A stretch of DNA of 64,000 bases from Deltaproteobacteria bacterium (GTDB lineage Bacteria; Desulfobacterota; Deferrisomatia; Deferrisomatales; BM512): contig PKTT01000002.1 of assembly GCA_002869015.1 (NCBI GenBank), forward strand, positions 32,299-96,298. Direction: 5' to 3'. Positions 11,067-13,509 of this stretch are shown here, piece by piece. Position numbers and translations under genes: made by a program. How positions within the stretch are numbered: position 1 is the first letter of the stretch; every line of letters starts with the position of its first letter. The notes beneath the pieces are model-generated. The model was not told where the DNA came from, made no database searches, and saw nothing but the letters and a program-made list of their open reading frames with translations.

Positions 11067-11971
11067 AGCGACGCGATTTTTTGAAGAAACTTGCCAGGAC
11101 GGGCTTTGTGGTATCAACCGCAGGCGCGTTGCCCCTTTTCGACCTCTCAAAAGCCTCGGCCGCGCCTAAGCCATATCCACTGGCGGTGGCAGCCGATGGC
11201 AGCCCCGCGGAGCTTGCCCGTGAGGCGGTTGGGAAGTTGGGGGGGATTACAAACTTCGTCAAGAGCGGGGATGTGGTTGTGGTAAAGCCCAATATAGGTT
11301 GGGACCGTACTCCCGAGGAGGGCGCTAACACCCACCCCGATGTGGTTCGCGAGCTTGTGTTGATGGCACTGGAGGCTGGCGCAAAGGAGGTTCGCGTCTT
11401 TGACCGCACCTGCAACGATCCGAGGCGCTGCTATAAGCGGAGCGGAATAGAGGACGCCGTTAACTCCATTGAGGATTCGAGGGCAAAGATTACGCACGTA
11501 GATGAGCTACGCTATGAAGTCGTAGAGATTAAGGATGGCGTCTCACTTACCAAGTGGCCCCTCTACCGCCCCGCGCTTGAGGCTGATGTGCTTATAAACG
11601 CCCCCGTCGTCAAACACCACGGCATGAGCGAGGTAACCATCGGCATGAAAAACCTCATGGGAATAATGGGGGGTAACCGTGGGCGACTGCACCGGGATTT
11701 GACCAACGGGCTGGTTGACCTCAGCCTTGCTGTAAAGTCTCATCTGACTGTGGTTGACGCTACGCGGGTTCTCCTCGCGGGCGGCCCCCAGGGAGGTGGA
11801 ACAAATAACGTAAAAGCCATCGGCAAGGTGGCAGCATCCCGAGACGTTGTAACCGCTGATGCTTGGGGGGCTACAATTTTTGGTGTCGATCCATTTTCCA
11901 TACCCCACATAAAGCGAGCACATGAGCGAGGTCTGGGTATCGCAGACCTCTCAAAGGTAGAGTTGCTTTGA
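11063..11971 (+). CDS. Tat-exported DUF362 domain protein
   Basis: N-terminal twin-arginine signal MKRRDFLKKLARTGFVVSTAGALPLFDLSKASA|AP. The core GDVVVVKPNIGWDRTPEEGANTHPDVVRELV...VKHHGMSEVTIGMKNLMG matches my recollection of the DUF362 family. Confidence 0.6.
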   Translation: MKRRDFLKKLARTGFVVSTAGALPLFDLSKASAAPKPYPLAVAADGSPAELAREAVGKLGGITNFVKSGDVVVVKPNIGWDRTPEEGANTHPDVVRELVLMALEAGAKEVRVFDRTCNDPRRCYKRSGIEDAVNSIEDSRAKITHVDELRYEVVEIKDGVSLTKWPLYRPALEADVLINAPVVKHHGMSEVTIGMKNLMGIMGGNRGRLHRDLTNGLVDLSLAVKSHLTVVDATRVLLAGGPQGGGTNNVKAIGKVAASRDVVTADAWGATIFGVDPFSIPHIKRAHERGLGIADLSKVELL

Positions 11972-13509
11972 GGATGCATATAAGTAGCAGAAGAGCGGTC
12001 CAGTTTCTTACGTTGGCGGGGTTTTTAGCCCTCTACGCGAGGACCGCCTATTATGGGCAGGATGAGATCACTTGGCCCGTCCACCTTGCTTTCAAGCTGG
12101 ACCCGCTTGCGCTTTTAAATACCCTGATTGCAGGGGGCTCACCCTCAGCAGCTCTTCTCTTGGGGGGGCTTTCGATGGTCGTCGCTACGGTCATCCTGGG
12201 GCGTTTTTTTTGCGGATGGCTCTGCCCAATGGGTACCACATTAGATATATTCGGAACCCTCCTGAGGAGGGGGGCAAAAAAGCGGCGGGGCTACCAAAAT
12301 GTAAAGCCGCCAAAATATAGTCAGACGGCTCTATTCATCACCCTCCTCTTTGCCACGGCGGCGGGATTGCCCCTTTTGGCATTTCTCGACCCGCTCTCAA
12401 TTTTACTGCGGTCATTGACTGTTTCGGTCTTCCCAGCCTTCGACTATTTGAGCAAAACAATTCTTTCGGCGGGGATGGATGCTTCGGTACCTCTTTCTGA
12501 GCCTATTTTCGAGTTGATGAGCGAGCATATCCTCTTGCTTAAAACCCCAGTCTTTCTTCTGGCCGAGGTGACCGCCGCCATTTTCATAGCAATCATTCTG
12601 CTTGAACTTATCTCACCCAGATTCTGGTGCACATATCTCTGTCCGCTAGGCGGCCTTTTGGGAGTAATTTCCAAGTTCTCACCCTTAACCAGGGCGCGAC
12701 TGGAGGAGTGTAAAGGGTGCAAGGGGTGCGCCGCCCGCTGCCCAAATGGGGCAGCTGATACAAACCCCGCCGACAAGGCGCTCTGCATCCAGTGCATGGA
12801 GTGCGGCGAGCTTTGCAATAAGAATATCTTCGGCATGAGGGCAAGATTCTCGGCACCCTCCCCTTCATTACCAGACCGGAGGATGAGGCGCGGGGTCGTC
12901 GCTTCCATAATAATCGGCGGAGGAGCAGCCCTTTTCACTGGAACCAGCGCAATTGCTAAGAGGCGCGGCACACGCTTTTTGAGGCCTCCGGGAGCTGTAG
13001 ATGAGGAGCGCTTCAATAAGCTCTGCATAAGGTGCGGCGCGTGTATGCGCGTTTGCCCTAGAAACGGTATACACCCGTCTCTCGGCGAAGCCGGGCTGGA
13101 CGGGCTCTGGTCGCCGAGGCTCGTTCCGCGGCTCGGCTATTGTGAATACCATTGCCGGCTCTGCGGACAGGTCTGCCCTACTGGTGCAATCAGGTATCTG
13201 GCTGAGGGGAAGAAGGAATCGTGGGTTATCGGCATCGCGGTGTTGGATAAAAACAGATGCCTCCCGTTGCGTGATGGAACCCCCTGCATTGTATGCGAGG
13301 AGCACTGCCCGACCTCGCCCAAAGCTATAGAGTTTGAGGTAAGGGAGGTCACCCGAAAAGAAGGCGACGTGGTGATGGTAAAACAGCCGAGGATAGTCGC
13401 TGAAAGGTGTAACGGCTGCGGGATATGCGAAAATAAGTGCCCCCTTGAGGGCGAGTCCGCGATCAGGGTCGAGCGTGTACAGCAGGAGATTTCCTCCCCC
13501 TACGGCTAG
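11968..13509 (+). CDS. Membrane polyferredoxin, apparent NapH/NosH-like plus NapG/NosG-like fusion
   Basis: The N-terminal half has 4-5 TM helices and two CX3CP motifs ([16 protein letters not shown]) plus [12 protein letters not shown] and [11 protein letters not shown], the NapH/MauN/NosH pattern. It is followed by [20 protein letters not shown] (Tat-like motif plus helix). The C-terminal half has [27 protein letters not shown] and three more Cys clusters, the NapG/MauM pattern. TTG at 11968 or ATG at 11974. Confidence 0.7.
   Translation: [513 protein letters not shown]

Follow-up and report, generated by a model that had tools for sequence, protein, structure and literature searches.

A fused NapH-like/NapG-like polyferredoxin with an internal twin-arginine motif, encoded next to a DUF362 protein in a Deltaproteobacteria genome

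Introduction

The 64,000-nucleotide stretch of contig PKTT01000002.1 analysed here (positions 32,299 to 96,298, assembly GCA_002869015.1, Deltaproteobacteria bacterium; hereafter the window) contains an open reading frame (ORF) at 11968-13509 in which counterparts of NapH and NapG, two separate polypeptides in E. coli, are joined into one, with a motif of the twin-arginine translocation (Tat) type in the middle. The locus thus raises the question of how, or whether, an Fe-S-loaded domain placed behind several membrane helices reaches the periplasm, and which redox partner it would serve there. The gene is an additional uncharacterised member of the published polytopic polyferredoxin (PFD) family, and its product is read here as a NapH-NapG fusion inserted first by the Sec and then by the Tat machinery, linking the menaquinone pool to a periplasmic partner, most likely a DUF362 protein, with a probability of roughly 0.78.

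A single reading frame related to both NapH and NapG

The PFD gene, which like all its features below lies on the forward (+) strand, is a single open ORF of 513 aa with a TTG start at 11968. The ATG at 11974, giving 511 aa, is likely the true start, as in the NCBI annotation, where the product is entered as "hypothetical protein" C0608_00255 of a Deltaproteobacteria metagenome-assembled genome, on a contig of 103 kb; an identical 511-aa database protein (P0001) was found, and NCBIfam and Pfam models match the product. The preliminary description of this DNA, made from the letters alone, had proposed an uninterrupted frame carrying the motifs CGWLCP and CTYLCP, ferredoxin Cys clusters and an RRMRR at 12877-12891, and all of these are present where it had placed them.

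Both halves of the protein match curated families, in agreement with that description. The NCBIfam NapH model NF007013 matches the first half (E 5e-31, 107.9 bits against a cut-off of 234), and the NapG model NF007012 matches residues 306-501 (E 2.2e-27, 95.8 bits against a cut-off of 269), the latter match beginning at profile position 14, which is within the NapG signal peptide. The NapH/MauN subfamily model TIGR02163 (E 9.4e-30, 104 bits against a cut-off of 213) and the MauM/NapG subfamily model TIGR00397 (E 1.4e-22) match as well. As both the NapH and the NapG scores are far under the equivalog cut-offs, the protein is a relative of NapG and NapH and an orthologue of neither. In BLASTP comparisons with E. 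coli K-12, NapH aligned with residues 8-300 (22% identity, E 2e-15) and NapG residues 4-205 aligned with residues 296-501 (35% identity, E 2e-24), with the NapG Tat signal RRRFLRDVV paired with RRMRRGVV of the window protein and LRPPGA paired with LRPPGA.

The first half has the NapH hallmarks, namely four transmembrane (TM) helices, two CX3CP motifs and a C-terminal two-cluster ferredoxin domain, and the second half has those of NapG, a Tat signal followed by LRPPGA and four Cys clusters, except that the signal is internal here and not N-terminal. The motif set and the predicted topology are therefore shared with the NapGH proteins of E. coli and Wolinella (W.) succinogenes; the differences are a longer TM3-TM4 loop than in NapH and the lack of a nap operon around the gene. 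In E. coli, NapGH (b2205/b2204) are two polypeptides encoded in the order napG then napH (NC_000913, 2298715-2300260, locus L084), while the window protein is one polypeptide with the H part first, and the fused proteins are always H then G. This difference in order means that the fusion did not arise by simple read-through or stop loss of the canonical pair. The NapGH paralogues NosGH and MauMN, which serve N2O reductase and methylamine dehydrogenase, belong to the same subfamily models that match the window protein, but they are split proteins, whereas the window protein is fused, has neither nosZ nor mau genes nearby and is partnered by DUF362. A Bacillus Nap paper in which NapG, NapH and the word "fused" occur was also considered and rejected, as it does not describe a NapGH fusion.

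Predicted topology and cofactor motifs

The helices were located by hydropathy and the topology was derived from the K+R counts of each loop, with the helices of an AlphaFold2 (AF2) model used as a cross-check. Five TM helices with the N-terminus inside are predicted, and the AF2 helices coincide with the hydropathy peaks; a topology prediction had been suggested in the preliminary description, and its outcome agrees with the fusion proposed there. The predicted cytoplasmic segments contain 33, 21 and 16 K+R per 100 aa, as opposed to 3 and 6 in the predicted periplasmic loops. The predicted topology is of the NapH type, judging from these sequence features, which puts the N-terminus, the two CX3CP motifs and the two-cluster domain on the cytoplasmic side.

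TM1 (residues 10-28, 11995-12051; AF2 helix 5-24) is supported by hydropathy and positive-inside counts and is preceded by an N-terminal RR at residues 8-9, with the N-terminus itself predicted to be cytoplasmic. TM2 (residues 60-78) is followed by the first CX3CP motif (C82 and C86), predicted to be at the cytoplasmic face, and both are located at 12145-12228 on the basis of hydropathy, alignment and a Pfam Fer4_5 match; the motif CGWLCP occupies residues 82-87, and the stretch G78-P87 is almost wholly invariant in an alignment of 30 sequences. TM3 (residues 122-140, 12331-12387), assigned by hydropathy and positive-inside counts, comes after a strongly basic cytoplasmic loop with 9 K/R per 43 aa. 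TM4 (residues 194-212) and the second CX3CP motif, RFWCTYLCP (C221 and C225; CTYLCP at residues 221-226), were assigned by hydropathy and alignment and lie at 12547-12645. They are followed at 12709-12816 by the cytoplasmic ferredoxin domain with two CX2CX2CX3C motifs (residues 248-258 and 273-283), which aligns with residues 221-270 of E. coli NapH and corresponds to the NapH C-terminal domain.

The internal twin-arginine motif RRMRR (residues 304-308, 12877-12891) was recognised by conservation and by alignment to E. coli NapG and to the PFD of the delta proteobacterium MLMS-1, and the Arg pair conserved in the family within it is R307-R308. It leads directly into TM5 (residues 309-329, 12892-12954), assigned by hydropathy and an AF2 helix at 304-322 and predicted to be a Tat-dependent helix; TM5 is glycine-rich and only moderately hydrophobic. 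Next, at 12958-12993, comes the basic patch KRRGTRFLR with 5 K/R among the 12 residues after TM5, ending in an invariant RPPG which is the counterpart of LRPPGA in E. coli NapG, as seen from the alignment and charge counts. The remaining part, at 13024-13440, is the NapG-like domain, predicted to be periplasmic and defined by profile, motifs and alignment, with four clusters of four Cys each (residues 353-363, 392-403, 431-447 and 481-491), the last of them ending at residue 491. Counting the two CX3CP motifs, the two CX2CX2CX3C motifs and the four 4-Cys clusters, the 28 Cys suffice for three cytoplasmic and four periplasmic Fe-S clusters. The preliminary description had also named what would speak against it, a second half without similarity to NapG-type proteins and both halves placed in the cytoplasm; neither is the case, given the 35% identity of the NapG match and a prediction that puts the C-terminal domain outside.

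A search of PDB sequences by profile with the PFD found generic ferredoxin modules only, such as FwdF and MvhB.

The published PFD family and its Tat hallmarks

The fusion of NapH and NapG into a PFD was described by Tooke, Babot, Chandra, Buchanan and Palmer in 2017 (eLife 6:e26577, PMC5449189), who screened all GenBank proteomes for an even number of helices followed by an internal twin-arginine motif and one more helix. Their example is Q1NSB0 of the delta proteobacterium MLMS-1, a protein with five transmembrane domains (TMDs) and with three clusters predicted inside and four outside (PMC5449189). When MBP and AmiA were fused after TMD5 of Q1NSB0, their export depended on Tat and on the RR pair, while the Sec insertion of TMD1-4 was argued by the authors and not directly demonstrated; the weakly hydrophobic TMD5, along with positive charges on its C-terminal side, was proposed to abort Sec insertion and to hand the protein over to Tat (PMC5449189). 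The question of how the Fe-S-loaded domain gets to the periplasm, which the preliminary description had treated as open, is thus largely answered for the family by the reporter export reported by Tooke et al.

Residues 1-364 of Q1NSB0, as given in the eLife supplementary file 6, align with residues 30-317 of the window protein (BLASTP, 31% identity, E 9e-41), and the RR motifs are in register, RRMRR being aligned to GRRR of the MLMS-1 protein. Both have the same NapH-like part, RR-TM5, basic patch and four-cluster NapG-like domain; Q1NSB0 has about 30 additional aa inserted in its cytoplasmic ferredoxin domain, which place TM5 at 338-359, as opposed to 309-329 in the window protein. No mention of a DUF362 partner was found in the paper on the MLMS-1 PFD. 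A comparable biogenesis logic, with an even number of Sec-inserted helices, an internal RR, a weak last helix, positive charges and a cofactor-loaded C-terminal domain, is shared by the dual Sec/Tat actinobacterial Rieske protein Sco2149 and the heme-MoCo protein Sco3746, although their folds and cofactors are unrelated to those of the PFD.

These hallmarks were followed across 83 genome loci encoding a PFD, with hydrophobicity taken as a crude sum over the Hessa scale for 19 residues and not by the dGpred server used by Tooke et al. The mean sum is 5.85 +/- 1.5 for TM5, compared with -0.38 for TM2 and 0.78 for TM4, and the stretch of about 14 residues from TM5 to RPPG contains on average 2.9 K+R versus 1.2 D+E. 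An RR precedes TM5 in 82 of the 83 loci, the remaining one having RK. Judged from sequence, the hallmarks of Tooke et al. hold family-wide.

The window protein is a slightly atypical PFD by the same measures, having a more hydrophobic TM5 and a more basic patch after it than is usual in the family, and the two-factor model fits this combination.

Distribution and conservation of the fusion

A word-indexed search found 2358 homologues at E <= 1e-10, the best 120 of which are nearly all about 500-540 aa long. Among representatives at 50% identity, an exhaustive search gave 7452 matches at E <= 1e-3 and 1121 at E <= 1e-30, and the best 150 representatives are nearly all single full-length matches, mostly of about 480-560 aa. 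When one genome was scanned for each species, relatives turned up in at least 568 species genomes, with the phyla including Thermodesulfobacteriota, Desulfuromonadota (including Geotalea toluenoxydans), Nitrospirota, Acidobacteriota, Verrucomicrobiota and others.

Conservation was assessed in an alignment of 30 sequences sharing 39-83% identity with the window protein. No substitution occurs at any of the 28 Cys, at R308 or within R339-P340-P341-G342, and R307 is kept in at least 90% of the sequences.

The PFD is encoded by one ORF in each of the 83 genome loci, so that the survey of fusion frequency proposed in the preliminary description gives 83 fused genes out of the 83 loci examined, and the fusion is the norm in the family. 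A frameshift or assembly artefact was considered and is excluded by the single ORF in these 83 loci and in 48/48 informative metagenome loci; the concern, raised from the beginning, that a sequencing frameshift had joined two genes is not borne out in independent assemblies.

The DUF362 partner

Directly upstream of the PFD gene, at 11063-11971 (+), is a gene coding for a 302-aa DUF362 protein (Pfam DUF362, E 2.8e-48) with an N-terminal Tat signal, MKRRDFLKK...ASA|AP. The stop codon of this gene and the TTG start codon of the PFD gene overlap. The product is named "cytoplasmic protein" by NCBI, despite the Tat signal.

The pair was present in all three contexts inspected first (41-49% identity). 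Within the 83 PFD loci, a DUF362 homologue with 41-59% identity is located no more than 250 bp upstream in 69 and no more than 2 kb upstream in 8 more, and RR is found in 71 of 73 intact DUF362 N-termini. A reciprocal survey, which is unbiased for the polyferredoxin, was made with 51 metagenome DUF362 loci having at least 1.7 kb of downstream DNA: a fused PFD is downstream in 48 of them, none lies within 4 kb in the other 3, and split NapH and NapG orthologues were found in none of the 51. Clustering of the neighbouring ORFs gave only PFD and DUF362 as consistent members, with no third conserved subunit. The idea put forward in the preliminary description, that the fusion would give its operon a quinol-linked electron conduit of its own, is retained here as far as the conduit is concerned, but the unit served is the two-gene DUF362-PFD module.

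Some loci depart from this arrangement. In two loci of Acidobacteria type, L072 (8539-11458) and L078 (8542-11126), the order is inverted and a more distant DUF362 is just downstream: the PFD is followed by a small lipoprotein-like ORF and then by two or three Tat-signal proteins, which include this DUF362 (26-38% identity); this suggests that the two loci are variant modules with extra periplasmic partners.

DUF362 and the N-terminal domain of DUF2088/LarA belong to the same Pfam clan, CL0471. An AlphaFold model of the DUF362 protein built from an alignment of 25 sequences has a pLDDT of 89.7, and its best 19 PDB matches in Foldseek are all LarA-family nickel-pincer-nucleotide racemases/epimerases, each with a probability of 1.00, E values from 6e-8 to 5e-5 and a TM-score of about 0.5. 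On the strength of this model, the DUF362 partner is predicted to have a LarA-type fold. The intervals between the invariant residues R82, H185/H186, K196 and H210 are close to those between R75, H174, K184 and H200 of LarA1, an argument from spacing only. No sequence link between DUF362 and LarA was detected by PDB profile search, there was no Pfam LarA_N match at E <= 10, and no lar genes were seen in the window. The two also differ in length, with LarA having about 420 aa and mature DUF362 about 265 aa, and in setting: DUF362 has a Tat signal and a polyferredoxin partner, while LarA enzymes are described with neither. A literature search for DUF362/PF04015 together with polyferredoxin or Tat returned nothing relevant.

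Genomic neighbourhood

The genes upstream of the pair, at 4624-11066 (+), have overlapping stop and start codons and appear to be in the same operon as DUF362-PFD. Their products are a membrane protein of 802 aa that has a weak spermine/spermidine-synthase-like domain, a NosD/beta-helix lipoprotein of 300 aa (signal ...SLAAC) and three paralogues of the CarboxypepD_reg/DUF4198-like type. Only five of the 83 loci (L003, L007, L008, L010 and L069) have both the NosD-like and the CarboxypepD_reg genes along with DUF362-PFD. A second, bigger NosD/right-handed beta-helix protein of 489 aa is encoded at 24123-25592 (-), beside ispH (LytB) and ribF and with no link to nos genes.

On the other side, a cobyric acid synthase gene, cobQ (13512-15014, -), converges on the PFD gene with a gap of 2 bp, and a cobalamin cluster including cbiG, cbiD and corrin methylases is located 35 kb off at 48377-53313 (-). 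A tungsten-type aldehyde:ferredoxin oxidoreductase (32225-34000), a menaquinone gene of the futalosine type (39243-40064) and a UbiD-like decarboxylase (40204-42030) are also encoded in the window. The other major ORFs code for a resistance-nodulation-division (RND) efflux pump, type IV pilus proteins, cobalamin and menaquinone biosynthesis and housekeeping enzymes, and napA, nosZ and mau genes are absent from the major ORFs of the 64-kb window.

Proposed biogenesis and function

Taken as a Sec-then-Tat-inserted fusion, the PFD may be assembled as follows. TM1-4 would be inserted co-translationally by Sec, with both CX3CP motifs and the two-cluster domain staying in the cytoplasm, as suggested by homology to the MLMS-1 PFD. 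Being only moderately hydrophobic and followed by a basic patch, TM5 would be skipped by Sec, so that the C-terminal domain could fold and gain its four clusters in the cytoplasm. R307-R308 would then pass TM5 and the loaded NapG-like domain to Tat, which would place the domain in the periplasm with TM5 as its anchor. By analogy with NapGH and from the gene linkage, electrons may be exchanged via up to seven clusters between menaquinol/menaquinone and a periplasmic redox partner, most likely the Tat-exported DUF362 protein encoded directly upstream; a menaquinone biosynthesis gene is present within the window.

Several points weigh against this. The Tat dependence of the window protein is extrapolated from a homologue with 31% identity, and Tooke et al. 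assayed truncated TMD-reporter fusions in E. coli and not the native Fe-S domain. Quinol oxidation is carried over from NapGH alone, to which the protein scores far under the equivalog cut-offs, and its interaction with DUF362 is deduced from gene linkage alone. The TM5 of the window protein has a Hessa sum of 2.5, which makes it more hydrophobic than the family mean of 5.85; this value is above those of TM2-4, but TM1 scores worse (5.5) than TM5, so the low hydrophobicity expected of the last helix is seen in relative terms only. Finally, the AF2 model of the PFD is of moderate confidence (pLDDT 68), falling off past residue 322, and no solved structure in the PDB resembles it in Foldseek (best E 0.75).

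Another view of the fusion is that it is a precursor, cut by signal peptidase after TM5 into a soluble NapG-like subunit and a five-helix NapH-like subunit, as in split NapGH. An AxA-type site, SAIA|KRRG, does occur right after TM5 (about 12940-12970 of the window, residues about 325-335), the closest relatives have [A/V/I]-R-A|[A/E] there (alignment columns about 375-385), and the signal peptide of E. coli NapG ends in ARA|S at the aligned position just ahead of LRPPGA. However, the AxA motif is not kept in the wider family, where ...PLLRI-TPL... is typical, small-x-small patterns are frequent by chance and cleavage sites seldom have a basic patch at +1 to +3; moreover, to free AmiA from the MLMS-1 fusion, Tooke et al. 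needed an engineered signal-peptidase site behind TMD5 (PMC5449189). Cleavage is considered unlikely.

It is likewise unlikely that the protein is no quinol dehydrogenase at all and acts as a transmembrane wire bypassing the quinones, in which electrons supplied by a donor in the cytoplasm (ferredoxin or NAD(P)H-linked) would pass the cytoplasmic clusters, then the CX3CP site and the periplasmic clusters, and end up on DUF362. With cluster motifs on both sides of the membrane and four invariant CX3CP Cys at its face, such a chain could in principle span the bilayer, and the NapGH literature is not known to account for what the cytoplasmic clusters of NapH do, which we count in favour of such a wire. 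The helices, however, are without heme-binding His or other cofactor sites to bridge the bilayer, no cytoplasmic donor gene is conserved beside the DUF362-PFD pair, and in W. succinogenes and E. coli NapGH functions as a quinol dehydrogenase (cited in PMC5449189).

A role as a true NapGH or NosGH component, serving a nitrate or nitrous oxide reductase encoded elsewhere, is highly improbable. NapH and NapG are indeed the best-scoring curated families and a NosD-like beta-helix lipoprotein is encoded two genes upstream, but the scores of 108 and 96 bits stand against cut-offs of 234 and 269, the NosD-like gene accompanies the pair in only five of the 83 loci, and the conserved neighbour across hundreds of genomes is DUF362 and not any Nap or Nos gene. 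The reading is largely refuted by gene context, and the Nap/Nos label of the preliminary description does not hold in the functional sense, with scores under the cut-offs and no napA, nosZ or mau in the 64 kb.

Least credible of all is that TM5 does not span the membrane, leaving both ferredoxin halves in the cytoplasm, or that the gene is a frameshift or assembly artefact: TM5 is glycine-rich and moderately hydrophobic and the AF2 confidence drops past residue 322, but the RR is kept in 82/83 loci, the segment aligns with the genuine Tat signal of E. coli NapG, reporter export is Tat-dependent in the MLMS-1 homologue (PMC5449189), the DUF362 partner has a Tat signal of its own, and the ORF is single in the 83 loci and 48 independent assemblies.

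The covalent NapH-NapG fusion with an internal Tat signal, as originally proposed, is thus supported by profile, pairwise and family-wide evidence.

Significance

Since the NapH-NapG fusion, its internal Tat signal and the Sec-then-Tat insertion have already been published (PMC5449189), the gene in the window adds little in that respect. The family is shown to be large, with more than 1100 clusters at 50% identity and at least 568 species genomes. More novelty lies in DUF362, the near-obligate partner with a predicted LarA fold. We tentatively put forward, as a possibility more likely to be wrong than right, that the two-gene module and not the fusion by itself is the unit that counts, and that a Tat-exported DUF362 protein of LarA fold wired to the quinone pool by a fused NapH-NapG constitutes a widespread uncharacterised periplasmic redox system in several phyla. 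If DUF362 indeed binds a cofactor of the nickel-pincer type, or another one for hydride transfer, no earlier enzyme of this sort would be known from outside the cytoplasm, nor one tied to an Fe-S electron chain instead of working as a redox-neutral racemase. Through its linkage to the PFD, the orphan DUF362 family can be assigned a place in the cell, a source of electrons and a partner open to testing.

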